Position numbers and translations under genes: made by a program
Shown here: positions 20,156 to 59,949 of the stretch, piece after piece
Position numbering within the stretch: position 1 is the stretch's first letter
How the letters are laid out: each line of letters begins with the position of its first letter
The notes under the pieces: model-generated
Told to the model about the DNA's origin: nothing
What the model saw: the letters and a program-made list of their open reading frames with translations, nothing else
Database searches by the model: none
Virus record (IMG/VR): IMGVR_UViG_3300047315_000487
DNA: 64,000 nucleotides
From: an uncultured virus (IMG/VR IMGVR_UViG_3300047315_000487)
Taxonomy: Duplodnaviria; Heunggongvirae; Uroviricota; Caudoviricetes
Direction: 5' to 3' (one strand)

Positions 20156-21631
20156 TCACGCGGCTGCAGCGAAGGCGCGGAGCCAGTCCGCGGCCTCGCC
20201 GTATCCGCCCGGCGCGGAGTAGAAGGCGAGCAGCAGGGCGTCGGCGTTGTCTGGGGACCGGCCGATGCGCTTCTTCGTGTCGTCTTTCGGTTCGACGACG
20301 ATGCGGCCGCTCGAGTCGGGGGTGTACTTGGGTGCAGTGAGCTGCGAGATGAGCCGTTCCCGGTCGTCCTCGTCGAGCTGGGACAGGTCCCACGCGCCGT
20401 CTTCGGAAAGCTTGCGGCCGATCTCCCACCAGATCTGCGAGCGCAGGCGCGGAAATCGGTGGGGCTGGCTGGAGGCGACGGAGACGTTGACGCCGAGGAT
20501 CTCCGCCTGGTGCAGGCCCTGTTCGCGCTTCTCGCGGAGGGAGCCGACGATGCCCCAGCCGATGCCGATGGAGTCGACCTTGACGGCGGTGGCACCGGTG
20601 GTACGGATGGCCTCGAGGATGAGGCCGACGACCTTGATGGGGTCCTTTTCGCGGGACCGCCATTCGCGGCCGACTTGCATGCCGCGGCGTTCGCGGATGC
20701 AGGTTTCGTCGCCGCCCGCGCCGAGGTCGACGCCGAGCTCAATCGGAGTCAGTTGCTCCTCGGCGAGTGGGACGTCGCGGGGCTGCGCGCAGGCGCGGAT
20801 CGCTGACAGGCGGACAACGCCGTCGTCGGCGTCCGAGGGGAACTCGCCGAGCACCTTGGAGATGTAGGTGGGCGATTTCTCTCCGTACTCGGCCTTCATG
20901 TCGTCGACGTAGGACTGACTGACGAGCATGGGTCGCACTTCGGCTGGCACGAGCTCGTCGGTGAAGTTCGGGGAGTCGAAGGCGGAGATGCGGATGACGT
21001 TCCAGCGGCCGTTGGCGCAGGCGCGGGCGAAGTAGGAGCCGGGGTCGTCGGGGTTGCCGACGGCGAGGATCCGACAGTGCTCACCAGTGGCGATGGAGTT
21101 GGCAGCGGTCCAGAACTGCTTGTTGATCCCGCAGGCTTCGTCGAGGAGTACCAGGACGTACTTAGCGTGGATGCCTTGGAAGGCGTGCGGGTTGTAGTCG
21201 GACGGCTTGCGGCCGAACGCGAGGAGGCGCTTGTCGAGCTTCCACTCGGTCTCGTTGATGCGCCCGATGAAGGGGTTGCCGCGGGCTTGGGCTTTGGCGA
21301 ACGCCCCGTTGATCTCGGACCACAGGATGGCCTTGACCTGGTCGCCGGTGGGTGCGGTGGTGACGACGCGGGCCTCACCGGGTGGGTGGATGTCCAGCCA
21401 CCATGCGGTGAGTCGGGACGCCACGAACGACTTGCCGGTGCCGTGGCAGGACTGCACGGCCGTGAGCCGGTGGTCTCGGACGGACTCGGCGATGGCGACC
21501 TGCTTGGACCACAGGTGCTCGCCGAGCTTGTCGCGTGCCCACAGCGCCGGGTCCCGGGCATAGTCAGCGGAGACGCGATCACGCTCGCCGCTCTGCTCGA
21601 TCCGGTCCGCAGCCATCAGGAGAGCGTCCAT
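20156..21631 (-). CDS. terL: Terminase large subunit
   Basis: SCHGTGKS Walker A, LLDEA Walker B, GVDLG and RSPDNADA nuclease motifs. Confidence 0.92.
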   Translation of the reverse strand: MDALLMAADRIEQSGERDRVSADYARDPALWARDKLGEHLWSKQVAIAESVRDHRLTAVQSCHGTGKSFVASRLTAWWLDIHPPGEARVVTTAPTGDQVKAILWSEINGAFAKAQARGNPFIGRINETEWKLDKRLLAFGRKPSDYNPHAFQGIHAKYVLVLLDEACGINKQFWTAANSIATGEHCRILAVGNPDDPGSYFARACANGRWNVIRISAFDSPNFTDELVPAEVRPMLVSQSYVDDMKAEYGEKSPTYISKVLGEFPSDADDGVVRLSAIRACAQPRDVPLAEEQLTPIELGVDLGAGGDETCIRERRGMQVGREWRSREKDPIKVVGLILEAIRTTGATAVKVDSIGIGWGIVGSLREKREQGLHQAEILGVNVSVASSQPHRFPRLRSQIWWEIGRKLSEDGAWDLSQLDEDDRERLISQLTAPKYTPDSSGRIVVEPKDDTKKRIGRSPDNADALLLAFYSAPGGYGEAADWLRAFAAAA

Positions 21632-31094: not shown

Positions 31095-33665
31095 TTAGGC
31101 GCTGACGGGTTCGGTGTCGAGGGGTTCGGCGGTGTGCCAGTCCTGCTGCTTCTTGGCGAGCTTTCCGAGGCGTTCCAGGCGTGCGGTGGCGTTGGCGACG
31201 TTGTTCGGCTTGAGGTCGGTGACTTCGGAGATCTGCTTGTTGCGCCGGGCGCCGCCGTCGACCGCATGCCAGACGAGGTGGGAGCGGGTGGGCGGCACGA
31301 GCTCGTCGAGGTCGTCGTCTTCGAAGTCCTCGCCGGCCACGGATGTGGTCTTCGTGTCGATGACCGTGGTGTGCTTGCCGGTCCTGGCTTCCTCGTCCTT
31401 GACGAGGTCGCGGAGGAACGCTTCCTCTTCGGCGGCGTCCAGGTGCCGGTACTCCTCGCGCCGCAGGTAGGCGATCCCGGCCGGGCCGGCTGCTGCTGCC
31501 GCGTCGGCCTCGCGTCGGGTCAGTGTCTGTACGGGGAACTGGCGGGCGATGCGGGCCGGGTTGGTGTGGAACATGGCCCTCGACTGCGTGTACTGCGCTT
31601 TGCCGTCGGCGATGTAGAACAGGCCGCCGGTCTCGGAGCCGTCCGGGAAGCGTTCGGGCAGGGATGCGAGGCGGAACTCGGGGGTGCGGGAGCCGAGCGA
31701 CATGATGTCGACGTCGGAACGCGCGGTGCGGAAGAGGGCGATGTTCCCGGACTGGAGCATGTCGCGGATGGCGTTGGCGCTGGCGTCGGAGCCGATGGAG
31801 TCCAGGTTGGGGATCTGCACCCACACCCGGGCCGCGATGCCCGCCGCGCGGGACAGGCGGCCGACGCTGGACACGGACCGCAGGAGCGGCTTGACATGGT
31901 CGGCCTGCGGGTCCTTGAGGATCATCTCGTTGAACTCGTCCCAGGTGGCGACCATGGGGGCGAACGGGTCGTTCGGGACGAAGAAGCTGCGGCCGTTCTC
32001 GGTGAACCCTTCGTCATCCAGCCACTGCAGCTTCATCTGCTCGGCGTACCGGTACTCGCTGACCGCATTGGCGGCCTGCCCCATGAGCATGGCGCCGTAG
32101 GGCGACTTGAGGAGCCAGTCGAGCTCCGACATCCACGGCGCGTAGCCGGCGCCGCCCTTGCCGTCGGCAAGCCAGGAGATGAACCCGTTCATGCGCTGGG
32201 CGACCTGCAGGTCTTCTTCGAGGGAGGTCTTGCCGGCGCCGGTGGTGCCGGACCCGAAGGAGTGCACCGCCGAGGCGGACGACTGCCCGGACAGGCCGCG
32301 GCGCTTGGGGTCAAACTTCAGCAGCCGCCACTTCGCGGGGCGCCCGTAGACGTCCTTGCCGACGGTGATGTAGCCCTGGTCGTCCATGCGCAGGGCGTCC
32401 AGGTCGAGGGGCACGCCGCCCTGCAGCGGGTTGACGGTCATCTCGTTGACCTCGATGCGGCGGGCATCGAGGACCCGCAGGTGCAGGCGGGACACGGCGT
32501 CTTCGCCTGCAAGGTCGAGGGCTTGGGCGATGGCGCGCGGCTGCACGTCGGCGACCGAGGAGCCACGGCGCGGCATGAGGATTTTGAAGCGGCGCCCGGT
32601 CTCGGTCTTCTCCGGGTCGTACAACTCGCTGCCGCCGTAGGGGCTGTACTCGTTCCACACCGCGGCCAGGTCGCCCATGTCCAGTTCGACGGTTTTGGTG
32701 CGCAGCCGCACGGTCAGCTTGGCCCGGTTGGCGGCCATGTCGTCGGGCCGGTAGACGTTCACGGCCCGCGGCGGCACCCCGAACGCGATGCTGATGGAGT
32801 CCTGGTCGACGCCCAGTGCGGGCTTGGCCGTCGTGGAGACGATGACCGCGGTGAGCTTGTCGGCGTCGAGGTCGATGCTGACGAGCTTCGATGCGGGCAG
32901 CGGGCCGCCGTCGCAGGCGATCCATTCCGCCCACCGGGCCAAGTACCAGTCCGCCGTCGCCGCACGGGCCTTCTTCGGGTCTGCCGCGTCGGGCTTGTGC
33001 CATATCCGGGCACCCCATCCGGCAGCGATGGAGCCGACCGCGAGGTGCGCCCACCAGGGCAGCTCGACGAACCCGGCCGCGGGGATCGCCGCGAGCGGAC
33101 CCGCCCGCAGCGCCATCTCGACGGCCGTGTACTGGCGCCACCAGCCGGACTCCCAGTCGGGCAGGTACTTCGCCCAGGCGGTGCGCAGGTGCTTGCAACG
33201 CATCCGGTGCGCCTCGGCGGTCGCTGCGCGCACCAGGGCAGGCCGGTCGTCACGCTGACGCCAACCGTCGGCGATCCCGACAACCGGCACGAACAGCCCG
33301 TTGCCACCCACGGCCGGGCCGTGCGAGTGGTCCTGTGCGAGGCGGCTGCGCATGCGGCGGACCTTGCGCCGGTAGCCGCGGTTACTGCTGCGGCACAGCC
33401 ACTCCCACGGCTCCCCCTGCCCGGGCAGCCAGCGCCACGGACCGGGGTTCATGCCGAGGCCCGCCCAGCCGGCGGCGAGACCGGTGGTTCCGAGGGTGGC
33501 GAGCAGCAGCGGTTCGCCGGTGAGGCATCCGGAGGCGACGCCCAGCCCGGCGCCGAGGTACAGGCCGGGGTTCTGCATCTGGTCGATGCGGGCGCGCAGG
33601 CCGGTCAGCTCCTGCGGCTGCACCTCGGTCTTGGCGTCGGTCTTGGTTAGGGTCGGCGTTGCCAT
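31095..33665 (-). CDS. traB: TraB-like FtsK/SpoIIIE conjugative DNA translocase
   Basis: N-terminal TM segments; GTTGAGKT Walker A; ADGKGG; WDEF Walker B; RLSRAAGI; C-terminal wHTH-like segment. Confidence 0.75.
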   Translation of the reverse strand: MATPTLTKTDAKTEVQPQELTGLRARIDQMQNPGLYLGAGLGVASGCLTGEPLLLATLGTTGLAAGWAGLGMNPGPWRWLPGQGEPWEWLCRSSNRGYRRKVRRMRSRLAQDHSHGPAVGGNGLFVPVVGIADGWRQRDDRPALVRAATAEAHRMRCKHLRTAWAKYLPDWESGWWRQYTAVEMALRAGPLAAIPAAGFVELPWWAHLAVGSIAAGWGARIWHKPDAADPKKARAATADWYLARWAEWIACDGGPLPASKLVSIDLDADKLTAVIVSTTAKPALGVDQDSISIAFGVPPRAVNVYRPDDMAANRAKLTVRLRTKTVELDMGDLAAVWNEYSPYGGSELYDPEKTETGRRFKILMPRRGSSVADVQPRAIAQALDLAGEDAVSRLHLRVLDARRIEVNEMTVNPLQGGVPLDLDALRMDDQGYITVGKDVYGRPAKWRLLKFDPKRRGLSGQSSASAVHSFGSGTTGAGKTSLEEDLQVAQRMNGFISWLADGKGGAGYAPWMSELDWLLKSPYGAMLMGQAANAVSEYRYAEQMKLQWLDDEGFTENGRSFFVPNDPFAPMVATWDEFNEMILKDPQADHVKPLLRSVSSVGRLSRAAGIAARVWVQIPNLDSIGSDASANAIRDMLQSGNIALFRTARSDVDIMSLGSRTPEFRLASLPERFPDGSETGGLFYIADGKAQYTQSRAMFHTNPARIARQFPVQTLTRREADAAAAAGPAGIAYLRREEYRHLDAAEEEAFLRDLVKDEEARTGKHTTVIDTKTTSVAGEDFEDDDLDELVPPTRSHLVWHAVDGGARRNKQISEVTDLKPNNVANATARLERLGKLAKKQQDWHTAEPLDTEPVSA

Positions 33666-33692
33666 CCGGTTCTCTCTCCGATCTGCGGGTGG

Positions 33693-33726
33693 GAAGGGCG
33701 GGGTCACGGCTATGGCCCCGCCCTTC
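33693..33726. promoter_or_regulatory. 14-bp stem hairpin immediately upstream of traB
   Basis: GAAGGGCGGGGTCA / TGGCCCCGCCCTTC. Confidence 0.45.
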
Positions 33727-33741: not shown

Positions 33742-34134
33742 CTACTGGCGCTTGATGAATTCGCGGTCGGCCATCTGCACGTTGTGGGTGCGGTTGGCGT
33801 CCTGCATCCGCCCGTGCTGGGCCCTGGTCTCGGACTCCAGGCCCTGGGCGTTGACGGTCAGGGAGTCGGAGGCGGAGACGATCGAGCCGACGTTGCCTGC
33901 CGCCGCCGTCCCGAGCCGGGAGACCTCCATGTAGGCGGTCGTGGTGGGCTCGTCGACGTCCAGCCGGGTCATGGCCTCGGACAGGTACCGGGCGGAGTCG
34001 GCCCGGTCTTCGTACCGGGCCTTCATCCGCTCGACGGCCGCCTTGGTGAGCGCGGCTCGGGCGATGTAGGCGCCCGCCCGGGCGAGGACTGCGGCAACGG
34101 TGACGACCGACCTGGTGTTCGTGGATGTGCTCAT
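33742..34134 (-). CDS. Helical TraA-like transfer-associated protein
   Basis: All-helical 130 aa upstream of traB; ends HGRMQDA..MADREF. Confidence 0.55.
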   Translation of the reverse strand: MSTSTNTRSVVTVAAVLARAGAYIARAALTKAAVERMKARYEDRADSARYLSEAMTRLDVDEPTTTAYMEVSRLGTAAAGNVGSIVSASDSLTVNAQGLESETRAQHGRMQDANRTHNVQMADREFIKRQ

Positions 34135-34136
34135 GG

Positions 34137-35294
34137 TCAGGCCGCCTTCGTCTCGTAGACCTCGGTGTGGGCCTGGGTGTCTTCGGCGTCGACCGCGTCG
34201 GAGATGTAGGCCTCGCGCTCGGCGACGTCCTCCATGTCCTTGGCGATGTCGGCGTAGACGCCCTGACCGGCTTCCAGTAGCGCCTTGGCTTTCACCACGG
34301 CTTCGCCTTGGGCGATGGTGTTCTGCTGCAGGTCGTCGACCTCGGCGTGGATGACCCCGTAGTTCTCCTTGCAGCGGACCACCCAGGCGATGACCTTCTC
34401 GCCGAGGCCGGTGGCTTTCGCGGCGGCGATGAGGGCGTCGCCTCGGCCGATCTCGCGCTCGGCGCGGGCGCGGATCCGGTCGTAGACCCGCACGTCGTCG
34501 TCGCACATGATGGAGAGTTCGTCGCTTTCCTCCATGACGGATTCGTAGGTGACTTCTGCTGCCATGCGGCCAGCTCCGTTCTTGACGTCCTGGGGTGTCG
34601 TCGTGTCAGCGGTTCCGGCGGTGGCCGGTTCGGGCTCGGGGGCGGTGGGGGCCGACGCGACAGCGGGGCCATCCGTGGTTTCTTCGGGGACCGTTGAGGC
34701 CTCGGGGGCTCCGGCGGTAGTGCTTGTGTCATCCGCGGTGGGCTCCGTGGTCCCGTCGGACACCTCGGGCTTCACCAAGGTCACGCCGCCACTCACGTTG
34801 CTGCCGCCACCGACTGTCGGCGGGTGGGTCGGCATCGGCGGAACGACCAGCGTCGGCTGACCGACAGGCACCGGGACCAGGACCGGCGCCGGGTCGGGCT
34901 GACCCGCGGCGCGCCGGCTCTTGCGGTACTGCCTCAGGGCGCCGCGTCCGGTGTCCTTGACCCAGCCCACGCCCGTGGCCGTGAAGTGGCCGGCGTGGCG
35001 CCCGATCGGGGTCGCGACCCGGGCGACCGGGGTGTGGCTGCGGTAGCCCGACCGGAACGCCTCGGGGATGGTGACGGGGGTAGCCGCCGCGGGCGGTTCC
35101 TTCCACGGCGAGACGCCCACAGGGTTCTGCGGGACTGTCGTGCCGTGTTTCTCGGCGATCTGCCGCACGGCCTTGTCGTGCCGGGTCTGCTCACGCATGA
35201 TTTCGCGCTGCGCCGGGCTGATGCCCAGCTTGGCCTGTTCGCTCTGCGCCCCTGCAACCCATGCCAGCAGGCAGGCGGCGAGCAAGACTTCCAT
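34137..35294 (-). CDS. Membrane-anchored transfer-associated protein with helical C-terminal domain
   Basis: Hydrophobic N-terminus, Pro/Thr linker, helical C-terminus. Confidence 0.6.
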   Translation of the reverse strand: MEVLLAACLLAWVAGAQSEQAKLGISPAQREIMREQTRHDKAVRQIAEKHGTTVPQNPVGVSPWKEPPAAATPVTIPEAFRSGYRSHTPVARVATPIGRHAGHFTATGVGWVKDTGRGALRQYRKSRRAAGQPDPAPVLVPVPVGQPTLVVPPMPTHPPTVGGGSNVSGGVTLVKPEVSDGTTEPTADDTSTTAGAPEASTVPEETTDGPAVASAPTAPEPEPATAGTADTTTPQDVKNGAGRMAAEVTYESVMEESDELSIMCDDDVRVYDRIRARAEREIGRGDALIAAAKATGLGEKVIAWVVRCKENYGVIHAEVDDLQQNTIAQGEAVVKAKALLEAGQGVYADIAKDMEDVAEREAYISDAVDAEDTQAHTEVYETKAA

Positions 35295-35411
35295 TACCTC
35301 TCCTCACGGTTGGTGACCGGGAGCGGGTGAACGTCTGCCTCGCACGCGCATGTACGCGTATAGGGCATCGCGACGTTCACTCGCAACCCGAGTGAATGAA
35401 TGAGTGAACGA

Positions 35412-35600
35412 TCACCGTGAGTAGCGGTCGGTGATCTGCTGAAGGGCATCGGCGACCTCCCGCCACGCACGGTTGGCGACCACCGGATCGGCCTTGCGCA
35501 GCACCCCGCGCAGCCGGTCCAGGCGCTTGGCCGCACCCTCCTTCGGGGAGCGCCCGTCCGCCTTTCGGATCTCCTTGATCCAGAACGCGGATCCGCCCAT
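35412..35600 (-). CDS. Small basic helical protein
   Basis: GAGGAGAGG RBS. Confidence 0.55.
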   Translation of the reverse strand: MGGSAFWIKEIRKADGRSPKEGAAKRLDRLRGVLRKADPVVANRAWREVADALQQITDRYSR

Positions 35601-35696
35601 CGGGAACCTCTCCTCTCTCGTCGGTTCGGGTGGTGCTCGCGGCCGTGGAGAGCTGCAGGTCAGAGAACTGGGGCTCGATCGTCATCAGCAGTCCCC

Positions 35697-36467
35697 TCAG
35701 TCCAGGGCCGGGAGTTCGGTGCGGTCGAGGATCTCCGCGCGGATGGACTTGGCCCGGGAGGCGGAGACGCTGCCGAACCCACCAGCGTCGATCGCATTCG
35801 CGAACTCGGATGCAGTGGGGTTGCGGCGCAGGCGCGCAAACTCCGCGCGGAAGATGGGCCCAGCGAGATCGACCCATTGATCGATCGAGCGACGCTGCGC
35901 CTTCTTGCTCGTGCGCGATCGAGCGCTGCGCGCGTTTGCCCTGGTCGGACGCTTTGCCGTGACGCCAACGCGGTGCCGCGGCCCCTTCTCTGCGATGAAG
36001 TGGACGACGTCCGGGGTTAGCTCGAACCACTCACTGTCGGCCACCCGGTGGGCGCCGAACTTCGCGTGTAGCGCCCGCTCCAGATCGGTTCCGCCGTGGA
36101 GCAGAAGCAGTACCGCGTCTTCACGGAGCGACAGGGAGGAGATGCGGTTGAACAGGGACTTCGTGTAACCGATCTTGACCCGGCCGCCGTTCGCCATGAA
36201 GTACACCAGCGCCGAATGCGGGTCGGTCGCCGGCATCGGCGCAGCCTGTGCGCTCGACACCAGGTGCGCCACAGCCGGCGGCAGCGTCCGGCTGCTCACT
36301 GCGCGCGCATCGCGGAGCGCGGCGGCGAGAAGCTCCGGTGTCACCGCGGCGGCGACTTGAAGCTTGTGCTCATCGCACAGGCGAACCGGCACGGCCAGGC
36401 TCGCGGCGTGGATGCACGCTGCGCCGTCCTGCTGCGCCTGGCACATGGTCTCGTGGTTCACGATCAT
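35697..36467 (-). CDS. T5orf172/MUG113 (GIY-YIG superfamily) protein with C-terminal HTH-like domain
   Basis: VYF..VKIGYT..ERALHAKF..SEWF. Confidence 0.72.
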   Translation of the reverse strand: MIVNHETMCQAQQDGAACIHAASLAVPVRLCDEHKLQVAAAVTPELLAAALRDARAVSSRTLPPAVAHLVSSAQAAPMPATDPHSALVYFMANGGRVKIGYTKSLFNRISSLSLREDAVLLLLHGGTDLERALHAKFGAHRVADSEWFELTPDVVHFIAEKGPRHRVGVTAKRPTRANARSARSRTSKKAQRRSIDQWVDLAGPIFRAEFARLRRNPTASEFANAIDAGGFGSVSASRAKSIRAEILDRTELPALD

Positions 36468-36483
36468 CCTTCGGTTCGGCGGT

Positions 36484-37491
36484 TCAGTTGTGGCGCTGGG
36501 ACCAGTTGGCCCGCGCCTCGACGAGTCGGTTGTAGGCGGTGGTCTTCGACATGCCGGTGCGCTCCTGGACGAACCCGAGCTTCACTTCGTCGTAGCCGTG
36601 CTCCTCGATGAGGTTCAGGACTTCGCGAACCTGCTCCTCGGGCGAGGCCGTGTCGTTGGTTCCGGCAGGTTCGGCGATGGGCCGCTTGGGCTTGTCGCGC
36701 TTGGTTCGCGCCGTGGTTCGCCGCGGTTGGCGGACGGTGGTTCGCCGGGGCCGGTTCGCGGGTTCCGGGGCGGCCTGAACCTCGGGTTCGGGACCAAGTT
36801 CCGGGGCCGGTTCCGAACCGGGTTCGCCAGCCTCCGTCGACTGGTTCGCCGGGGGCTCCGGAACCGGGTTCGCGGACAGGTTCGCCGCGGCCTCCTTGAG
36901 CGCGTCCGGGAGCTCGATGCCGAGGATGTAGGCGCGGTAGATGGCCCAGGTTCCGGACCGGTCGACGAACCACCGGAGCAGGTGCACGCGCGGTCGCTCG
37001 CTGCCGTCCCGGCGGGCAGCTGCCGCGCGGGCCTCGGACATCAGGCCCTCGAAGAGGATCACGGCGGCGGGCGGCATGAACGCGGCGATCCAGCGGCCGG
37101 TCGGGTCGGTGATGTGCTCCCAGTTGATCCAGCTCGACAGCGCGGTGAACACGACGATCAGCAGCCGCCACAGCGACGCGCCGCGGGCGTTGATGCTCGC
37201 GCGGAACACGACCAGTGACAGGCCGGCCGCGGCGCCGTCGAAGGTGATGGGGACGAGCCAGGCGGTGTCGGCGTTCAGGCCCATGTGGGTCATGCCGAAG
37301 TTGTGCAGGCCGATGAACGATGCGGTCCAGCCGGCGAGGGCGACGATGAGGACGACGACGAAGCCGGTGATGCCCAGGCCTGTGTCGCGCGCCCAGTTGC
37401 CGACGGCGCGCAGGCGGTCGGCGGCCGTGGTCGTCGCGCGCGGTTCGGGCACGTCGATTCCCGGCTGGGCGTCGGCCTGGTTGGCGGTCAC
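36484..37491 (-). CDS. DUF2637 / SpdA-like membrane protein with C-terminal HTH
   Basis: ASFIGLH, AWLVPITFDG, NWEH, MPP motifs; four TMs; TGMSKTTAYNRL. Confidence 0.75.
   Translation of the reverse strand: MTANQADAQPGIDVPEPRATTTAADRLRAVGNWARDTGLGITGFVVVLIVALAGWTASFIGLHNFGMTHMGLNADTAWLVPITFDGAAAGLSLVVFRASINARGASLWRLLIVVFTALSSWINWEHITDPTGRWIAAFMPPAAVILFEGLMSEARAAAARRDGSERPRVHLLRWFVDRSGTWAIYRAYILGIELPDALKEAAANLSANPVPEPPANQSTEAGEPGSEPAPELGPEPEVQAAPEPANRPRRTTVRQPRRTTARTKRDKPKRPIAEPAGTNDTASPEEQVREVLNLIEEHGYDEVKLGFVQERTGMSKTTAYNRLVEARANWSQRHN
36703..36886 (+). repeat. Eight co-oriented GGTTCGC[C/G] 8-mers (clt/TRS-like)
   Basis: Copies at 36703, 36715, 36739, 36753, 36821, 36843, 36867, 36879. Confidence 0.7.
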
Positions 37492-37525
37492 GTCGGTCTC
37501 CTTCATGCGGTGGGGGTGGGGTGGG

Positions 37526-37771
37526 TCAGTGCTCGGTGCTCTGGTCCTTGGCGACGGTCGTCTTCGCGCGCTGCCAGCCGGCCCACAGGTGGCCGAGGCC
37601 CATGTAGACGCCGGTGAAGCTGGACAGTCCCGCGAACAGGCCCACGGTGAACGGCAGGTGGTGCAGGTACATCTCGCGGCCGAGGAGGGTGGCGAAGAAC
37701 AGGGCGATCGCGGCGAAGATCCAGTAGACGATGCTGTCGTCACGGTCCTCGGTGGGCTTGTCGGTGGTCAC
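37526..37771 (-). CDS. Small two-TM membrane protein
   Basis: Two hydrophobic helices; GAGAGGA RBS. Confidence 0.65.
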   Translation of the reverse strand: MTTDKPTEDRDDSIVYWIFAAIALFFATLLGREMYLHHLPFTVGLFAGLSSFTGVYMGLGHLWAGWQRAKTTVAKDQSTEH

Positions 37772-37853
37772 GGCGGTCCTCTCATGGACGGGTCGGGGTC
37801 GCTAACCGTTCTCCTTGGTGCTCACCCCGGGGGCTGAGCACCGCGGGCAGTGG

Positions 37854-38033
37854 TCAGCGGCCGAAGCCCCACTTGATGACGGCGGACACGGTGTCGGTCT
37901 GGTCGGTGACCTTGCCGGAGTCGAGTTCGTCGGCGCGGGCCTCCAGTCGGTCGGCGGAGTCCTTGCGGCCGGCGCCCCTCTGGCGGTCGGCTTCGGTGCG
38001 ATTCGCGGCGGCGGCGCGGGTCATGCGGGACAT
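37854..38033 (-). CDS. Hypothetical protein (59 aa)
   Basis: Manual translation MSRMTRAAAAN...KWGFGR; GAAGGA RBS. Confidence 0.5.
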   Translation of the reverse strand: MSRMTRAAAANRTEADRQRGAGRKDSADRLEARADELDSGKVTDQTDTVSAVIKWGFGR

Positions 38034-38172
38034 GAGGGTCCTTCCGGGTCGGGCGGGTGGGGCGGAGGTGGTGCACCGTCACCCCGAGCCGCGGGGGAAC
38101 ACCCCGGGGTGACGGCGGTTCTTGCCGGGCTTGGCGGGTCGTCGGAGCGGTAGTCCGCGAAACCCGGCGGTC

Positions 38173-38631
38173 TCAGGTGACGATCGGCCGCTCGATGTGG
38201 CGGTGCTCGACCTCGCACGAGATGTCTGCCGCACGGAGGTGCACAGCGATTTCCTCAGCCACGGCAACCGAACGGTGGCGACCTCCCCCACAGACCGCGT
38301 GGACGTCCACCCGGTACTGCTGCGGGCCGCCGGTCCACTGCCGGAGGTTGTCGCGCTGCAGCAGGATGCGGACCTTCTCGGCCGACTGCGCCACCAGTTC
38401 CTTCGCGCCCGGCGTCGCCATGACGTACCGGCGGACTTCCGGATCCAGGCCGTTGGAGCGCAGCATCCGTTCGCGGACCTCGGGGTCCTCGGGCGGGTTG
38501 CGCAGGATGCGGGTGTCGACGTGAAGGGCGGTTCCAGTGGGTGCGTCGTGGTGGAGGTCGCCGTAGGAGGTGATGACGGCCGCCACGTGCCGGTCGTCGT
38601 AGAGGGCGCTGAGGTCGTTCGGGGTTCCCAT
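38173..38631 (-). CDS. Stand-alone RapZ C-terminal-like domain protein
   Basis: ITSYG..H..DTRILRNP and VCGGGRHRSVAVAE..VEHRHI match RapZ-CTD motifs. Confidence 0.7.
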   Translation of the reverse strand: MGTPNDLSALYDDRHVAAVITSYGDLHHDAPTGTALHVDTRILRNPPEDPEVRERMLRSNGLDPEVRRYVMATPGAKELVAQSAEKVRILLQRDNLRQWTGGPQQYRVDVHAVCGGGRHRSVAVAEEIAVHLRAADISCEVEHRHIERPIVT

Positions 38632-38635
38632 GGGG

Positions 38636-38800
38636 TCAGTCGCCGTAGTTCTCGGGGAGTCCGTGGCGTCGGAGCCACTCGCTCTCCATGGAGTTGGAGC
38701 CCTGCAACTCGTAGTAGGCGCGGGCGTCGTTGACCTCGTCGTCGGTCATCTCGCCGGAGGTCTTCGGGTACCAGGACTGCTTGGTGTGGTCGGTGCTCAT
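38636..38800 (-). CDS. Hypothetical protein (54 aa)
   Basis: Manual translation; GAGAGGA RBS. Confidence 0.5.
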   Translation of the reverse strand: MSTDHTKQSWYPKTSGEMTDDEVNDARAYYELQGSNSMESEWLRRHGLPENYGD

Positions 38801-38836
38801 GGGGTTCCTCTCGGATGCGTCGGATGGTCGGGCTAG

Positions 38837-39136
38837 TCAGACGAGCTGCAGGTCTTCGTTGGCGTCGTACAGCAGGCGGTCGGCCTGGGTGAGCAGCCGC
38901 TTCCGGGTCTTGGTGTCCTTCGCCCCGAGGTGCTGCACGGCGCGGAGGATGTCGGCGGCTCCGGTCAGGCATTCGCGTTCGTAGCCGAGCGGGCTGAGTC
39001 GGTTGAGGACCGCGCCCAGGAGGTCGGCGAAGCCGGCCTCGGTGCAGTCGTCGGCGTCGAGGGTGATACCGACGGCCTCGGCGATCGGGGCGGCGTAGTC
39101 GGCGATCAGGGTGTCGACGGTGATGGGCTTGGTCAC
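38837..39136 (-). CDS. Hypothetical protein
   Basis: GGAG RBS; operon context. Confidence 0.6.
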   Translation of the reverse strand: MTKPITVDTLIADYAAPIAEAVGITLDADDCTEAGFADLLGAVLNRLSPLGYERECLTGAADILRAVQHLGAKDTKTRKRLLTQADRLLYDANEDLQLV

Positions 39137-39153
39137 GGGGTCTCCGGTCGGGT

Positions 39154-39378
39154 CTAGTAGGCGGGGCCGTCGACCTGGCGGACGTACAGCCGCACACCGG
39201 GGTGTTCGGCCTGGGTGCGCAGTACGTCCTGGACGATGCTGTTGAGGGATCCCGGGCCGCCGACACCGCCGAAGCTGAGGAGCTCTCCGGTGGCGTCGTT
39301 GTAGACCCGGTAGTTCATGTCGACGTCGGAGGTGTCCTTGCGATCCGGGAGGGACTTGCCGTTCCAGCGGTCGGCCAT
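39154..39378 (-). CDS. Hypothetical protein
   Basis: GGAGG RBS; coupled to upstream ORF. Confidence 0.55.
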   Translation of the reverse strand: MADRWNGKSLPDRKDTSDVDMNYRVYNDATGELLSFGGVGGPGSLNSIVQDVLRTQAEHPGVRLYVRQVDGPAY

Positions 39379-39502
39379 CACCGGCCTCCCTGCTGGCGTC
39401 GGGCGTCCTCGATGGCCTTCTGGGCGCGCGCGATCTCGGCCATCCGCTGACGGGTCTGCTCGGCCAGCGCGCGGGCAGCGGCGCCCTGATCGGATGCGGC
39501 GC

Positions 39503-39733
39503 TCACTTGAGCTCACCCCCGTCGAGCTCCCGGTTGACGCCCCCGACGAACGCGACCTTCATGGCCGGGGTCATCCGGTACGTGGTCTGCCAGAACGCGC
39601 CACGCTCGTCCTGGCTCGTCAGGGTGAGCAGGCCGCCACCATCGGGGGTCTCCTCGACCTTGAACATCGTCAGGTCGTCGATCAGCGGGGCCGGGGCCGC
39701 GGCGGCGCCGGGCTGGATCGCGTACACGATCAC
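39503..39733 (-). CDS. Hypothetical protein
   Basis: Protein-like C-terminal part of listed ORF. Confidence 0.5.
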   Translation of the reverse strand: MIVYAIQPGAAAAPAPLIDDLTMFKVEETPDGGGLLTLTSQDERGAFWQTTYRMTPAMKVAFVGGVNRELDGGELK

Positions 39734-40015
39734 CACCCCCGCACGGCGGCGGCCAGTCGACGCAGCGCCCTGGCGAGTGCGAGCCTCGGCGGCAGATCCG
39801 GAATGATCGGCGGGAGGCCGCTCATCGCGCACCCCCGGGCTGCTCGCCGTGCTTGGCGGCGTTCCCCGACGCGTCCTGGTAGGCGGCCTGGTAGTGGCCG
39901 ACACTCCCGGCCGACGGGTGACCGGGCGTGGCCTGGATCTCCACGATCCGCGCGGCCAGACCGTTGGCACGGTTCTGCTCCTCGGCCGCGAACGCCGGAG
40001 ACGGAAGGTCGGCGG

Positions 40016-41600: not shown

Positions 41601-42365
41601 ATGGCAAACGAGAACGAGGACGAGGCCACCGTCTGGTCAACGCAAGACCAGATCGCTGCCTACCTGCGCGACGGGATCCTGTCAGGCGACTTCCCGCCGG
41701 GCAGCAAGCTCCCTTCCAGCAGAGACCTGACCGAGCGGTTCGGCGCTGCCGCGCAGACCATCCGCAACGCGGTGCTCACTCTCACAGCGGAGGGCCTCGT
41801 CTACTCGCGACAGGGCTCGGGCGTGAAGGTCCGCGAGCATCCGCAACGGACCATGGAGCCGGCGAGCTACAAGACGCCACCCTCCGCCGGAGGGAAGTAC
41901 CAGTGGATCAGTGCGGCCGAGAAGAAGGGCTCGTCCGGCAGTAGTGAGTTGCTTGTCGTCGAGGAGGTCGTCCCTCCCGTGGCCATCCGCGAGGCGCTCG
42001 GCCTAGCCGACGGCGAGTCGGCGCTGCTGCGGCGACAGGTCCTGTTCCTTGATGACAAGCCGTGCGAACTGGTCGAGGTGTACGTGCCGCTCGATCTGGC
42101 TCGTGAGACCGCCATCGCCGCGAACCGGAAGATCAGGGGTGGGGTGGGGCGAGTGCTTGCGGAGGCCGGGTTCCCCCCGTTGCGATGCGTGGACAAGGTG
42201 TCGGCTCGCTGGCCCACGCCGGAGCAGGCTCGGGCCCTGAAGATGCCCACCAAGCTGCCGGTGCTGCGCACCTTCCGGGTGACGTACAGCGTGGACGACA
42301 GGCCCATCCAGGCGGAGATCATGGCGAAGGCGGGCCACCTGTACGAGTTGCAGTACGAGTTCTAG
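41601..42365 (+). CDS. GntR/HutC-family repressor (KorSA-like)
   Basis: GDFPPGSKLPS..L..EGLVYSRQGSG wHTH plus UTRA; divergent from transfer operon. Confidence 0.88.
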   Translation: MANENEDEATVWSTQDQIAAYLRDGILSGDFPPGSKLPSSRDLTERFGAAAQTIRNAVLTLTAEGLVYSRQGSGVKVREHPQRTMEPASYKTPPSAGGKYQWISAAEKKGSSGSSELLVVEEVVPPVAIREALGLADGESALLRRQVLFLDDKPCELVEVYVPLDLARETAIAANRKIRGGVGRVLAEAGFPPLRCVDKVSARWPTPEQARALKMPTKLPVLRTFRVTYSVDDRPIQAEIMAKAGHLYELQYEF

Positions 42366-48955: not shown

Positions 48956-50308
48956 CTACGCGGCGCTCTCGCGGCCGGGGAGGCGCATCTCCAGGGTGTG
49001 GCCGCCGTCGACGTCCAGGAGCTTCACCAGCGGCACCGTGACGGCCTCTGGGCGCGGGATGGCCAGGGTCGGCGCCTGCTGCGGGATGACCGGGCGGGTC
49101 GTGGCCTGCCGCGTGCCCCACCCGTTGCGCCGCAGTGTGGCGAGCGCGTACAGCCGCAGGGGGATGAGGAGCGTCAGGTTCATCAGCGCGTACAGCGGCG
49201 CCGCGGCGAACGTGAGCAGCCGGTCGGTACGCGGCACCTGGCCGGCCGAGCGCAGGTAGTGCAGCGACCGGAACCATGCGGCGGCGGAGACGTACACGGC
49301 GTACCAGGCGAACACCGTCCAGGCGTGCGGGTTGCTGGCGAACACGGCGAGGGCGACCAGCAGGGCCGAGGTGAACGCGACCCACGTGGCGAGCTCGACC
49401 AGGTTGAGCCACCAGTAGGCGCGGCCCATCGAACTGACCTTCAAGGCCAGGAGGACGCCCTCGCGGATGAAGCTCTTCGTCCACCTGCATTGTTGAACGA
49501 GATACTTCCGAAGATTCTCCGGCACGTCGGTCCAGGCGACCGCGGTGGGCACGATCAGCGACTGGCCCTCCAGCAGGCAGTAGTACGTGAGCCGTCGGTC
49601 GTCGCCGAACGTGCACTCCTTGCCGAGGAAGCGTTGGCCGAGGAAGTCGTCGAGGTACTTCCGGACCGTCGAGCCGCGATAAAGGGCGAGGCTTCCGCAG
49701 GCGCAGAGGACGGAGCCGAGGCGGGAGTAGGCCACCCGCTCGCCGAGGAACGCATTCTGATACCGCATGTCGATCAGGCGCGTCAGCAAGTTCTTCGAGC
49801 GATTCGCGGCCAGGACAAGGCCGGTGACGGCGTGGACGCGGCGACGGGCGAACGGCCGGGCGGCCTCCTCGACGGCGTGTTCGTCGAGCACGGTGTCGGA
49901 GTCGATGCACAGGTAGATGTCGGCGTCCTGGCGGGCGTTGAACCCGGCGGCGAGGCCGTGGCGTTTGCCGCGGTTGACGGGGAAGCGGATGAAGTCCAGG
50001 CGGATCCCGGCGGCAGCGAACGCCGGGCGCAGATGGTCGATGACTCCGGCGGCGGAGCGGTCCTTCGAGCAGTCGTCGATGACGGTCAGCGAGTCGGGCC
50101 GGCGGGTCTGGTCGAGGATCGACTCCAGGCAGCGACGGAGCGCAGCAGGGTCCTCGTTGAAGGTCGTGACAACCCCGTGGATGACGTGGCTCGTCGCCCC
50201 GGCCGGCTGCTGCGCGGTGGGTCTGCGGCGCCGCTTCAGCGACGCGAGGAGCTTGATGGCGAGCAGGGAGCCGACGGCGATGCCGTACCAGCCCAGGTGA
50301 TTGTGCAC
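48956..50308 (-). CDS. Processive GT2 glycosyltransferase, hyaluronan synthase/NodC-like
   Basis: IDDCS, IDSDT, CACGSLALYR, FGDDRRLT and QQCRWTKSFIRE motifs; C-terminal TMs. Confidence 0.85.
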   Translation of the reverse strand: MHNHLGWYGIAVGSLLAIKLLASLKRRRRPTAQQPAGATSHVIHGVVTTFNEDPAALRRCLESILDQTRRPDSLTVIDDCSKDRSAAGVIDHLRPAFAAAGIRLDFIRFPVNRGKRHGLAAGFNARQDADIYLCIDSDTVLDEHAVEEAARPFARRRVHAVTGLVLAANRSKNLLTRLIDMRYQNAFLGERVAYSRLGSVLCACGSLALYRGSTVRKYLDDFLGQRFLGKECTFGDDRRLTYYCLLEGQSLIVPTAVAWTDVPENLRKYLVQQCRWTKSFIREGVLLALKVSSMGRAYWWLNLVELATWVAFTSALLVALAVFASNPHAWTVFAWYAVYVSAAAWFRSLHYLRSAGQVPRTDRLLTFAAAPLYALMNLTLLIPLRLYALATLRRNGWGTRQATTRPVIPQQAPTLAIPRPEAVTVPLVKLLDVDGGHTLEMRLPGRESAA

Positions 50309-50345
50309 AGGGGTCCCCCTTGAGTGTGGTTCGAGTGGTGGTTGG

Positions 50346-50558
50346 TCAGGTGCGGCGGGTCTTGGCGACGACGATGTCTACGCAGGCATCCGCGAGGCCC
50401 GTGACCCACGAGAAGTCCTCGTAGGTGATGCCGTGGACCGCCGCCGCAGCGAGCATGTCTTCCAGCAGCCGAAGCGCCAGGTCCCGCTGCTCCGCCGTGA
50501 TGGCCGGCCCATACCGCTGGACGGCGGCGATGGCCTCGGCCGGGGTGCGGGCGGTCAT
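50346..50558 (-). CDS. Hypothetical protein
   Basis: GAGGAG RBS; coupled ORF. Confidence 0.55.
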   Translation of the reverse strand: MTARTPAEAIAAVQRYGPAITAEQRDLALRLLEDMLAAAAVHGITYEDFSWVTGLADACVDIVVAKTRRT

Positions 50559-50876
50559 CGCTTCTCCTCCTCGTCGCTCCACCGCTTCTCGGCGGACGGG
50601 TCGTAGTGCTCGCGGTTGATGGCGCTCTTGCTGTCGACGTGGCCCGGGGACTTCCGGCAGATGAGGGTGTGGCCGTCCTTGGTGCGGGTGGCGAGGCAGA
50701 GGTCGTGGGCGGTCACTGCTGCTCACCATCTCGACACTGGTCGCGCCAGTCGTAGCGCAGCGTGCGGCGTTCCACGCACAGCCTGTCCCAGTGGTCGCGG
50801 GCGGCATTGAGCGCCTTGTAGGCGTCGTCGATGTCTGCGGCCAGGCGCCGCTCTCGGGCCTCGTACTCCTCGCGGG

Positions 50877-51305
50877 TCATGCGGTCCTCCGAGCGTTCGG
50901 ATGGCAGTCAGCCTCCGGACCGTGCCCGCAGTCGCACGGGCTGCCGGTCGGGCCGTGGAACTGGCAGGCGTCGGCGGCCGGTTCGACGAGCTCCAACCCC
51001 AGCCGCTCCCGTTGCTCCGGCGGCAGGAATAGGGCTGCGGGCCGTCCGGTGTCGGTCATGCAGGCCACGATCGCCTGGTCGTCCTCGCCGGTCGGCGGCA
51101 TGACGAGGCGGTCCCAGTGGAGGACGATCGGGGTCGTGTCGGCTTTCGCCTCGGCCTCGAACTCGTTGAGCAGTCGGTCGAGGCGGGCGATGACCGTGGG
51201 CGGGAGCGGCTTGCCTCGGGCGGCGTTGTCGATCCAGAGGACGGTGAAGGCGCGCAGGTTTTCGCGGGCCGATGGGGTGGCCTCGGGGGTCTGGGCGGAG
51301 TTCAC
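50877..51305 (-). CDS. Hypothetical protein
   Basis: Coupled early ORF. Confidence 0.55.
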   Translation of the reverse strand: MNSAQTPEATPSARENLRAFTVLWIDNAARGKPLPPTVIARLDRLLNEFEAEAKADTTPIVLHWDRLVMPPTGEDDQAIVACMTDTGRPAALFLPPEQRERLGLELVEPAADACQFHGPTGSPCDCGHGPEADCHPNARRTA

Positions 51306-51492
51306 GGGCGGGGCTCCTTACTGCTCGATGCATTCCGCAGGTCGGCGTAGTACTGGGCTCCCTTGCGAGTGAAGAACGAGTCGCAACTGAGCTGGCTGAC
51401 GGTGTCGGTGATGACGAACCAGCGCGGGCCGTACTGCTCGACGACGAATCGCGCCTCGGTCACGGCCTGCTCGGCGCGGGACAGGGGGGTGG

Positions 51493-51915
51493 TCACGACG
51501 CACTCCATCCGAGCACGTCGCCCGCCATACCCTCGGCGAGGGCCTTCATCGCGTCGTCGCCAGAGTCCTGCGCGACATGCTCGCCGCCGTGCTCGGCAAC
51601 CAGAGCGCGCACCAACTCGACGGGCACGTACCCGAAGAGGCGTCGGTCGGTCGGGTCCGACTCGTAGTCGGCGGTGTGCTCGGCCCAGGACTCGGGCGCG
51701 GTCAGCGGCTCAACTAGGTACACCTCCAGCGCGGTGTACGGGCCGGCGTAGTCCTCGGGGGCGTCGCCCAGGCCGTAGGACGCGGGGCGGGGCGTGCAGT
51801 ACGCGCCGGGCCCGGCCTGCACGGAGATCACCGCATCGTCGGTGAACCGGATTCGGCGGGGCAGGCGGCCGGTGCCGTGGGCGGCGATGTGGTCGAGGCG
51901 GTCGGTGTGGATCAC
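51493..51915 (-). CDS. Hypothetical phage protein
   Basis: ISVQAG..YCTPR..GYVPVELV; AAGGAG RBS. Confidence 0.6.
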   Translation of the reverse strand: MIHTDRLDHIAAHGTGRLPRRIRFTDDAVISVQAGPGAYCTPRPASYGLGDAPEDYAGPYTALEVYLVEPLTAPESWAEHTADYESDPTDRRLFGYVPVELVRALVAEHGGEHVAQDSGDDAMKALAEGMAGDVLGWSAS

Positions 51916-51951
51916 GGGTGCTCCTTACGGGATGGGATGCCGGGCCGGAGA

Positions 51952-52317
51952 TCAGGACGGGCAGGTGCAGGCGGGGTTCGCGGGGTAGCGGCACGGGGCG
52001 GGGTGCGGGGCCTCGGGCTGACCGTCGGGGCGCGCCACCACCTGCCAGCCGAACGGCAGGTTGCGGGTGGGGTCGTCGGGGTCGGGCGTGAACGTCGGCT
52101 GGTAGCGCAGCATGTAGCCGCCGTCGCGGACGGTGCCGCCGTGGTGGGCACCCGCATCGACTACAGCCGTCGGCTTCACGCCGAGTTGCTCGCAGAAGCC
52201 AGCAATCATGTCGATGTTGTACTCGGACAGGCGGTTGAGGGCGTTGGCCAAGTCCTGCCAGAGGGCGTACTCGATGGCGTCGTACATGCGGGCGTCGATG
52301 TCGCGCGGGCTGGTCAC
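51952..52317 (-). CDS. Hypothetical protein
   Basis: AAGGAG RBS; GTGA coupling. Confidence 0.55.
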   Translation of the reverse strand: MTSPRDIDARMYDAIEYALWQDLANALNRLSEYNIDMIAGFCEQLGVKPTAVVDAGAHHGGTVRDGGYMLRYQPTFTPDPDDPTRNLPFGWQVVARPDGQPEAPHPAPCRYPANPACTCPS

Positions 52318-52574
52318 TGCTGCTCCTTGCGGTCGCGGACGGGCAGGTCGGGGCGGACGTCGCGGAGGTGCCACTCCGTGACGGCTCCGTGGCCGCTCAC
52401 GGTGTCGACGAATCGGGCGCCGCATCCGCCGCCGGGCTTCGGGGTGTACCCGGAGATGTCGGCGTGGTGCGTGACTGGGGTGCCGTGGCGGTCGCGGAGC
52501 AGGGCGGGTTTCCCGCAGTGGCCGCACTCGGAGTCGGAGATATTGATGACGATGGTCGCGGTCAACTCGGTCAC
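52314..52574 (-). CDS. Hypothetical Cys-containing protein
   Basis: Start preceded by 19-bp repeat carrying RBS. Confidence 0.6.
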   Translation of the reverse strand: MTELTATIVINISDSECGHCGKPALLRDRHGTPVTHHADISGYTPKPGGGCGARFVDTVSGHGAVTEWHLRDVRPDLPVRDRKEQQ

Positions 52575-52603
52575 GTGCGGGCCCTCCTCGGGCTGTCGGT
52601 CGG

Positions 52604-52861
52604 TTAGCGCGTGGCGTCTTCTGTGCACCAGGGCGCATCGGCGTCGTCGTAGATGACAGGGGGGTGGCCGTCGGCGCGGTGGCCTGTCGGGGCGAACGTG
52701 ATGCGCGTCCGGGCTGTGGCGTCATCCGTCTCGGTGCTGGTGACGGTGCGGTCGTAGCCGGTGCCGTCGGAGATCCGCATGCCGGGTTTCAGGTCGCGGG
52801 CCTTGTGCCAGGTGGTGCGGGGGAAGGGGCCGGGCTTTCCGGCGAGGTTGGCGCTTCTCAC
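52604..52861 (-). CDS. Small beta-rich hypothetical protein
   Basis: KARDLKPGMRI; preceded by repeat. Confidence 0.6.
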   Translation of the reverse strand: MRSANLAGKPGPFPRTTWHKARDLKPGMRISDGTGYDRTVTSTETDDATARTRITFAPTGHRADGHPPVIYDDADAPWCTEDATR

Positions 52862-52884
52862 GGTGGCCCTCCTCGGGCTGTCGG

Positions 52885-53118
52885 TCAGGCGTCGGTGTCG
52901 TTGGCGGGCGGCATGTAGTGGACGATGTCGCCGGGCTGGAGCCAGACGGGCGGCTCCCACAGGTGGGAGTCGATGTCGAGGAGGTCCAGGCGTAGGCGGG
53001 CGGGCTGACCCGGGCACGGGTCCGGAGTGACCTGGTCGACGATGGCGCAGCGGTCGCCGAGGTCGGCGATCGCGCCGACGGGGAGGCGGTCGGCGGTGTC
53101 GAGCGTCATGCGGGACAT
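52885..53118 (-). CDS. Small beta-rich hypothetical protein
   Basis: ADRLPVGAI; preceded by repeat. Confidence 0.6.
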   Translation of the reverse strand: MSRMTLDTADRLPVGAIADLGDRCAIVDQVTPDPCPGQPARLRLDLLDIDSHLWEPPVWLQPGDIVHYMPPANDTDA

Positions 53119-53170
53119 GTGGCCCTCCTCGGGCTGTCGTCGGCACCCGGCCGCGAAGGACGGGCAGGGG

Positions 53171-53446
53171 CTAGCGGGTTGCGGTACGGATCGCGGCGAC
53201 GCGTGCTTCGCGGCTGGTCCGGCGGCACCTGTCGTTCGGGAGGGCGGTGACCTCGCCTGCGATCCGGAGGCCCCAGAGCTGGGCGGCGGGCGAGAAGACC
53301 AAGTCGACGCCTGACGCGCGGTAGCCCGTGCAACCGCAGGTCTCGACCGTGCAGTGGTCGGCGAACTTGTGGCCGTGGCCGCAGGGGCAGACGTTGGCGA
53401 TGGTGGTGGTCCAGTCGGTGATCACGGGCTGGGTGATGGTCTGCAT
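53171..53446 (-). CDS. Hypothetical Cys/His-rich protein, first gene of early operon
   Basis: CPCGH..HC..CGC; GGGGAG RBS. Confidence 0.6.
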   Translation of the reverse strand: MQTITQPVITDWTTTIANVCPCGHGHKFADHCTVETCGCTGYRASGVDLVFSPAAQLWGLRIAGEVTALPNDRCRRTSREARVAAIRTATR

Positions 53447-53485
53447 TGCGGGCTCCCCTGCGGTTGGCGATGACTCCACTCTAGA

Positions 53486-53582: not shown

Positions 53583-53594
53583 GAACATGACCCC

Positions 53595-59948: not shown

Positions 59949-59949
59949 G

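Follow-up and report, generated by a model that had tools for sequence, protein, structure and literature searches.

A repeated heptamer in the linker codons of a DUF2637 membrane-protein gene, a probable docking site for the protein's own C-terminal tail

Which protein reads a short DNA word that is repeated along the coding sequence of a membrane-protein gene in a phage-like element? This question is raised by a stretch of 64,000 nucleotides (hereafter, the window; G+C content, 68.9%) from an uncultured member of the Caudoviricetes (IMG/VR record IMGVR_UViG_3300047315_000487), in which a gene of the DUF2637 family carries a dense array of the heptamer GCGAACC. A preliminary description of this DNA had noticed eight copies of GGTTCGC[C/G], the same word on the opposite strand, all in one orientation within about 185 bp, and had proposed that they form a clt, the cis-acting transfer site that is recognized by TraB. 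We report that selection acts on the DNA of the array and that, among related loci, the word co-varies with the C-terminal tail domain of the membrane protein. We propose, with a probability of about 0.68, that the array is a docking site whose cognate partner is the tail of the DUF2637 protein itself, a tail that resembles a helix-turn-helix (HTH) domain, and that this site is written in the codons of the protein's linker. The gene and its array are laid out as follows.

36484..37491, minus strand: DUF2637 membrane-protein gene, 335 aa from a GTG start, product identical to database protein P0004
36916..37365, minus strand: DUF2637 domain (PF10935), aa 43-192 of 335
36643..36906, minus strand: disordered linker, approximately aa 196-283 (~90 residues), rich in P, E, A, N, R and T; predicted local distance difference test score (pLDDT) 30-38
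36487..36642, minus strand: C-terminal "type A" tail, aa 284-335 (~52 residues), three helices, HTH/winged-helix-like, proposed reader of the array
36703..36886, minus strand: core array, eight exact GCGAACC copies on the coding strand, equivalent to GGTTCGC[C/G] on the plus strand
36380..36886, minus strand: extended array, consisting of the core array, degenerate copies and two inverted exact copies

We recovered all eight same-orientation copies as exact matches to GGTTCGCS on the plus strand (36703, 36715, 36739, 36753, 36821, 36843, 36867 and 36879), with spacings, read along the coding strand, of 12, 24, 22, 68, 14, 24 and 12 bp between copies. The three variant forms named in the preliminary description were present as well (GGTTCCGG at 36658 and 36761, GGTTCGGG at 36785, and GGTTGGCG at 36725), among degenerate copies with a CGAACC, GGAACC or CCAACC core at 36658, 36668, 36725, 36761 and 36785. 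Two further exact copies, both inverted, lie downstream on the coding strand, one in the HTH-coding part of the gene (36624-36631) and the other in the next gene (36380-36387). Enrichment over the background, which the preliminary description had expected, was evident: GGTTCGC[C/G] occurs 26 times on the two strands of the window compared with 11.5 ± 3.3 times in shuffled versions of the whole window, and none of 100 shuffles reached 26. The array is the largest same-strand 7-mer cluster of the window; the next unrelated clusters have four copies, and the maxima in 30 third-order Markov simulations were three to five copies. No strand skew extends beyond the array, since the 18 of 26 matches that are dispersed outside it are divided between the plus strand (8) and the minus strand (10), and on these counts we rejected a polar skew of the word across the element resembling that of FtsK-orienting polar sequences (KOPS). 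Neither is strict strand polarity a general trait, because related arrays mix both orientations. No tandem unit behind the copies was found by Tandem Repeats Finder and a repeat finder, and the flanks of the copies are merely 64-79% alike. Within the tape-measure gene of the window, positions 9173-9186 form a 14-bp palindrome, GGTTCGCGCGAACC, from two inverted copies of the word, a single occurrence that may be due to chance.

The coding-strand copies of GCGAACC use three reading phases, encoding AN four times, RT three times and EP once. Given the protein sequence, 1.6 ± 1.1 copies are expected from the codon usage of the window and 2.2 ± 1.2 from permutation of synonymous codons within the gene, compared with the 8 observed; not one of 3000 resampling replicates reached 8 copies under either null. 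Codon choice at the sites is unusual in the corresponding way: all three RT sites in the linker use the rare arginine codon CGA, which accounts for 48 of the 639 arginine codons in the reference open reading frames (ORFs) of the window, and all four AN sites in the linker use GCG, whereas the N-terminal Ala-Asn uses GCC. Because resampling predicts about two copies and eight are observed, selection acts on the DNA of the array. The use of several frames, from which the preliminary description had judged that the constraint appeared to act on the DNA, and the synonymous-codon resampling thus agree.

The protein encoded by the gene matches PF10935 with an E value of 1.7e-36 (126 bits, compared with a gathering cut-off of 22.8), which places it in the DUF2637 family. 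We assigned its start to the GTG at 37491 because the identical database protein P0004 has 335 aa, and the longer ORF of 419 aa (36484..37743) probably does not represent the gene. Its DUF2637 domain appears to consist of four hydrophobic helices, and, because of these hydrophobic segments and the positive-inside rule, we infer that the C-terminus lies in the cytoplasm together with the linker and tail. DUF2637 homologues keep the membrane domain and have C-terminal domains of several unrelated kinds; the linker, which holds the array, is hypervariable among them. A structure model of the type A tail has three helices (pLDDT 86-91) and matches winged-helix and HTH domains of DNA-binding proteins, namely F-112, FapR, DriD, the N-terminal domains of TetR and ScpB, AsnC and TtgV, with Z scores of 4.7-5.5 and root-mean-square deviations (rmsd) of 1.9-4.2 Å; for F-112, DriD, TetR, ScpB and AsnC, the rmsd is 1.9-2.6 Å over 49-54 residues.

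Among homologues that have this tail, the nearest (P0005, P0008 and P0009), which were compared as proteins only, contain peptides compatible with the word (AN[LPHQ], RT and EP). The tail is also found on proteins of another kind. Residues 292-333 are 64-67% identical to the C-termini of plasmid proteins of 786-831 aa from Streptomyces californicus, S. microflavus and two Kitasatospora species, and these plasmid proteins had no DUF2637 match in Pfam. The 786-aa protein of S. californicus shares solely residues 292-333 with the window protein; the match to the 831-aa protein of K. fiedleri spans aa 205-333, including linker residues, at 35% identity. We found no blastn match to window positions 34000-40000 and no tblastn match to P0004 in the phage collection, and a single-protein scan of viral contigs for relatives of the window locus likewise gave no match.

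The type A tail occurs in six other loci, each with an array built on a CGAACC core. In five of them (L040, L041, L050, L053 and L054), the word is GCGAACC/GGTTCGC itself, and the arrays reach 10-20 copies per 950 bp and flank the tail-coding part on both sides. The window proteins found in two of these five loci (L040 and L041) at E ≤ 0.01 were the tail only, plus a distant TraB-like match in L040. In L040, L041, L053 and L054, the array extends beyond the stop codon into DNA that lacks a coding-type G+C content at third codon positions, and many of the copies there form 12-bp palindromes, GGTTCnnGAACC, which look like the classic operator form of dimeric HTH proteins. Palindromes of the type GGTTC-nn-GAACC stand just after the stop codon in L054 (4139-4300), L040 (6139-6400) and L041 (6205-6360), and L054 has two perfect copies of GGTTCGCGAACC 35 bp apart; the copies within linkers, unlike these, are mostly single half-sites. 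Elsewhere in the window, GGTTCnnGAACC has two matches with one mismatch each, equal to the chance expectation. Two spurious, weak tail matches (L051 and L052) had no array.

Many linkers of DUF2637-type proteins in viral and metagenome loci contain other words that are likewise repeated on one strand and in several frames, including CGGACCG (35 copies, L039), GCGCCCC (11 copies, L037) and AGCGCCC (8 copies, L035), and further words are CCTGCCAG (7 copies, L036), CGCCAAG (9 copies, L034) and GTGAGAG (9 copies, L033, in a single frame only). Compared with a synonymous-permutation null that takes the same maximum statistic, the top 7-mer was in excess in 11 of 16 genes (P ≤ 0.004). In 24 genome loci with a homologue of P0002, the TraB-like ATPase of the window, the corresponding position is occupied by a different membrane protein, whose gene has an array.

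Across these loci, the word goes with the tail. We clustered the last 66 aa of 23 genes (blastp, E ≤ 1e-3) into six tail types. The top 7-mers had a 6-mer in common for 27 of the 45 pairs of genes within a cluster, compared with 0 of the 208 pairs from different clusters. Exchanges of domains lead to the same result: L040 and L004 share the type of N-terminal protein and differ in tail (type A vs type D) and in word (GCGAACC vs CGGACCG), and L039, a DUF2637 locus, shares with L004 both the type D tail and CGGACCG. The tail of L033 recurs in L023, again together with the word GTGAGAG, and L001, L003, L018 and L019 have a common sixth tail type (type F) with the word CCGTCAC. Thus, the word co-varies with the C-terminal tail domain of the membrane protein. 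Measured from the end of the P0002 homologue, the type F arrays of these four loci (CCGTCAC/CGTCACG) lie approximately 5.2-5.8 kb upstream. Tail types B to F had no Pfam match above threshold. In searches of 401 genomes, the type A tail gave one strong match (L050) and type C gave matches in two genomes, counts that are no estimate of prevalence because short tail queries are insensitive; two of the three type C matches (L057 and L059), for which the selected ORF was in a wrong frame, were left out of the analysis.

The reader named in the preliminary description, a TraB-type pump, is encoded downstream of the array.

31095..33707, minus strand: TraB-like ATPase P0002, 870 aa, with N-terminal hydrophobic helices, a Walker A motif, a motor of the FtsK/TcpA fold and a C-terminal domain resembling a winged HTH (wHTH)

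The Walker A motif of P0002 is GSGTTGAGKTS, and the C-terminal three-helix domain has its helices at residues 808-846. The true start probably lies near 33665 because the family consensus is MAT.T..K (alignment A2). Foldseek matched the model to the TcpA coupling protein (7e-8) and the FtsK motor (6e-7) with a probability of 1.00, and EccC was also matched. P0002 had no match in Pfam, including PF01580, or in NCBIfam, and its sequence link to the FtsK/TraB family runs only via L035. With its modelled motor fold, Walker A motif, membrane segment and C-terminal wHTH, P0002 fits the FtsK/SpoIIIE-TraB translocases, so that a TraB-like pump is present in the module. P0002 and the three genes upstream of it form a conserved unit that recurs, with 57-97% identity, in numerous genomes of Streptomyces and Streptacidiphilus (L001-L024) and whose members are all annotated as hypothetical proteins and have no Pfam match.

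Several observations would fit a clt at which the wHTH of P0002 binds the heptamers, so that the pump loads there and translocates DNA. The array is a cluster of words in the size range of 7-9 bp, with eight exact copies in 184 bp, and known clt loci are reported to be arrays of 7-9-bp direct repeats bound by TraB or TraA (PMC4447253, PMC3583192). P0002, an FtsK-fold ATPase with a C-terminal three-helix domain, is encoded in the operon of the array, and in 6 of 9 viral and metagenome loci a DUF2637-type gene lies zero to three genes from an FtsK/SpoIIIE-like ORF (four of the six ORFs above the Pfam cut-off and two just below it). The word, however, does not vary with the pump. In 10 loci, the wHTH of the P0002 family is almost invariant and the arrays have at least four words (GCGAACC, CCGTCAC, CGGACCG or GTGAGAG); L003 and L004 have identical recognition helices and differ in word (CCGTCAC vs CGGACCG). 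Conversely, the word GCGAACC is found in arrays next to four kinds of TraB, which are ~20-25% identical or show no detectable similarity: P0002 in the window, a protein like that of L035 in L040, a protein of the canonical FtsK/SpoIIIE kind in L041 and, in L032, yet another type. Likewise, type C arrays adjoin three TraB families that are ~20% identical. The pumps of L037 and L039 are 92% identical and their words and tails are different, a pair that decides nothing by itself because the recognition helices differ at three positions. Moreover, 2.8 kb and four genes separate the array from the P0002 start downstream of it, whereas the clt of pWTY27 reportedly overlaps the end of traA (PMC3583192). 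We therefore regard TraB as an unlikely reader of the word. Of the proposal that the array is a cis-acting transfer site, the part that stands is a docking site for a protein, which is the best reading; the part that finds no support is its recognition by TraB. A comparison of 24 syntenic P0002 segments yielded as shared 7-mers and 8-mers only generic GC-rich words and is uninformative as a search for a conserved clt.

If the tail of the DUF2637 protein is the reader, its action might be as follows. The protein would sit in the cytoplasmic membrane with its linker and tail facing the cytoplasm, and several tails would bind (G/C)CGAACC half-sites on the double-stranded DNA of the element. The resulting membrane-tethered nucleoprotein complex would mark the DNA of the element and hold it at the membrane beside the TraB-like pump that is encoded in the same operon. 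Such a complex would probably serve to recruit the DNA or to hand it over, for intercellular transfer or for intramycelial spreading, or else to anchor it so that it is stably inherited. Since site and reader would lie in one gene, they would move together as a cassette.

A number of observations weigh against this proposal. Linker and tail are adjacent and may simply have been inherited together as one block of DNA, which would also give co-variation, and the within-type loci behind the count of 27 in 45 pairs include close relatives (L018/L019; L040/L050/L054; L041/L053). In 5 of the 16 genes (L025, L026, L029, L030 and L032), the top 7-mer was not above the null, and L032, with a type A tail on a DUF2637 protein, has only a degenerate GAACC/GGTTC array. 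A second protein encoded in the window, of the T5orf172 family, has a type B tail and no array of its own. The fold matches of the type A tail are modest (Z ~5), which is no surprise in so small a domain, and are common for a helical domain of 50 residues; its HTH matches in Pfam fall below the cut-off (TetR_N, 17.5 bits; HTH_IclR, 16.2 bits). Finally, the N-terminal part of the structure model is poor, so that the topology of the protein rests on a reading of its sequence.

A different role for the same binding would be that of an operator or roadblock, in which the tail occupies the array chiefly for transcriptional control of its own operon, the downstream TraB-like "kil" gene included, and tethers no DNA for transfer. 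HTH half-sites and 12-bp palindromes are of the operator type, the sites are inside the operon and upstream of the pump gene, and unregulated traB is reported to be toxic and to be normally repressed by a GntR regulator (PMC4447253). Such a GntR regulator is, however, already encoded in the window, 8-37 copies over 200-600 bp far exceed what an operator needs, and a repressor has no need of a membrane anchor. Regulation as the main function of the array appears improbable to us.

Iterated arrays of short sites resemble plasmid centromeres, and the membrane protein might be the anchor by which the element's copies are segregated along hyphae or into spores. A ParB-N protein is encoded near the array in L032, and SpdA2 and its sps sites in pIJ101 are reported to have affected segregational stability and not transfer (PMC4170104). 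Against a centromere, the scan of window ORFs showed no motor of the ParA or ParM type, and the conserved neighbour is a TraB-like pump; we consider a partition function quite improbable. Least credible, and strongly disfavoured, is the view that the array arose incidentally, through low-complexity coding or replication slippage, and does nothing at the DNA level, for although the linker is compositionally biased and the chromosomal DUF2637 linkers of L044 and L045 have single-frame repeats of the peptide-repeat type, the array has three frames, a synonymous-codon bias and no tandem unit, and the same word persists where linkers are no longer alignable, as well as in the non-coding DNA of distant loci.

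The surroundings of the DUF2637 gene bear out the transfer-module context that the preliminary description had assumed: a divergent GntR gene, the DUF2637 gene and a TraB-like FtsK-fold ATPase make up a set of the Streptomyces-plasmid type. The neighbouring genes of this set are as follows.

33742..35600, minus strand: three conserved genes (62 aa, 385 aa and ~254 aa) that accompany the TraB-like gene
35697..36467, minus strand: T5orf172/MUG113 protein, whose C-terminal aa 183-255 are the "type B" tail domain
41601..42365, plus strand: GntR/UTRA regulator, divergent and upstream, in the place of KorA/TraR in Streptomyces plasmids

The three conserved genes are kept beside the TraB-like gene in 23-24 of 24 Streptomyces and Streptacidiphilus loci. 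The type B tail of the T5orf172 protein shares 57% identity with that of the L034 DUF2637 protein, and the database homologue P0064 is a fusion of DUF2637 to MUG113; tail domains therefore seem to shuffle among different N-terminal partners. Upstream of the DUF2637 gene, 38173-38631 on the minus strand encodes a 152-aa protein that consists of the C-terminal domain of RapZ alone (PF22740, 6.6e-23), and homologues are found at the corresponding place in L034 and L026.

Elsewhere the window resembles a phage genome, with genes for a tape measure, a minor tail protein, a portal-MuF fusion, a large terminase, a protease, DnaB, a methylase and Ant/Bro proteins.

5451-9320, structural block: tape measure
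17402-20125, structural block: portal fused to MuF
20156-21631, structural block: large terminase
56358-57233, replication block: N6/N4 methylase
60979-63900, replication block: DnaB with a LAGLIDADG intein

The transfer-type module sits between the tailed-phage structural block (1-25300) and the replication block (50000-64000). The window ORFs that were scanned included no integrase gene and no partition gene. Among isolated phages, the portal has distant relatives only (25-31% identity). The IMG/VR contig L037 encodes a type III polyketide synthase (15236-16306) near its DUF2637 and TraB genes.

Taken beyond this window, the pattern may reflect a widespread and so far undescribed actinomycete cassette of plasmids, islands resembling actinomycete integrative and conjugative elements and plasmid-phages, in which a membrane anchor, a disordered linker and a small DNA-reading tail are combined with a word that the linker codons of the same gene spell out many times, so that a specificity and the address label for it would evolve and recombine together. 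The membrane adaptor, and not the wHTH of TraB, would then pick the DNA for the pump, which would constitute a second and exchangeable layer of cis-recognition in the conjugation of double-stranded DNA. We offer this generalization tentatively, as a possibility that we rate below even odds. In TraB-type conjugation, a single pump moves double-stranded DNA, for which clt has so far been taken as the sole address label. If membrane adaptors with self-encoded arrays select or tether DNA, the high variability of Spd-region genes would be explained, and the pairing of tail type and word would be a sequence rule that predicts which elements use which machinery. Such a gene would, moreover, clearly exemplify how a protein-binding array can be laid over a translated disordered linker, with codon choice set by the DNA site. 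The module belongs to an element that encodes virions, which adds a case to the small number of plasmid-phage hybrids known from Streptomyces. Among full-text papers on DUF2637, judged from the search listing alone and with subscription papers outside the scope, nothing on such arrays was found, and the literature on SpdB/SpdB2 and on clt or TraB recognition sequences, within the same scope, contained no linker-encoded arrays that follow a tail domain.

Of the systems known from Streptomyces plasmids, the plasmid-phage pZL12 and the related pSLE1 resemble the window as phage-like elements that combine virion genes with plasmid functions, and a type III polyketide synthase gene, as in L037, is reported for both (PMC4487206). 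The array itself is similar to clt loci in that short, irregularly spaced and mostly direct repeats occur in a TraB-type module and probably dock protein multimers. The reported clt repeats are an 8-bp unit, GACCCGGA, in pSVH1, a 9-bp unit present nine times in pJV1, and TGACACC present four times in pWTY27 (PMC5133688, PMC3583192, PMC4447253), and according to the same sources known clt loci adjoin or overlap a tra gene and are bound by TraB or TraA. The difference is that the window word does not follow the wHTH of TraB and that its array is contained in a different gene, at a distance of 2.8 kb from that of the pump. The anchor recalls SpdB2 of pSVH1, which is described as an oligomeric integral membrane Spd protein that interacts with TraB (PMC4447253): both would be membrane anchors with a cytoplasmic DNA-binding part encoded beside traB, a feature that is predicted here, whereas SpdB2 is reported to bind double-stranded DNA non-specifically (PMC4447253). 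DUF2637 could not be equated with a named Spd family, as SpdB, SpdA and KilB of pIJ101 have no DUF2637 match.

The closest parallel is SpdA2 of pIJ101, which binds a 12-bp palindrome, CGTCACGTGACG, inside its own gene (Thoma et al. 2014, PMC4170104). Synonymous recoding of these sps sites is reported to have abolished SpdA2 binding and lowered stability, with transfer not affected (PMC4170104), and SpdA has been proposed to connect the DNA substrate with the TraB/Spd translocon (PMC4447253). As in the SpdA2/sps system described there (PMC4170104), a DNA binder of the transfer and spread region would have its sites within its own coding sequence, where they are selected as DNA; the location of the sites in the gene of their candidate reader is observed directly, and the pairing of reader and site is suggested by co-variation. 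The preliminary description had noted that some SpdA proteins bind repeats within their own genes, and this remark came closer to the result, since the word follows the tail, although the protein is not of the SpdA family. SpdA2 is described as a soluble protein of 135 aa with an N-terminal domain resembling a zinc finger (PMC4170104), whereas here an HTH-like tail is found at the C-terminus of a membrane protein, and the reported SpdA2 sites are two to three copies of one palindrome on many plasmids, compared with 8-37 half-sites here and a word for each tail type. The type F word CGTCACG is a half-site of CGTCACGTGACG, and a connection of type F to SpdA2 through this half-site was rejected because the proteins are not similar; compared with all 23 tails, SpdA2 of pIJ101 showed no sequence similarity (best E value, 1.8). 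The hallmarks of the SpdA family, a length of 117-163 aa, a conserved N-terminal domain and CGTCACGTGACG, are absent, and the window cassette is therefore an analogue of SpdA and not a member of its family. In effect, its design would amount to the SpdA/sps idea fused to an SpdB-like membrane anchor.

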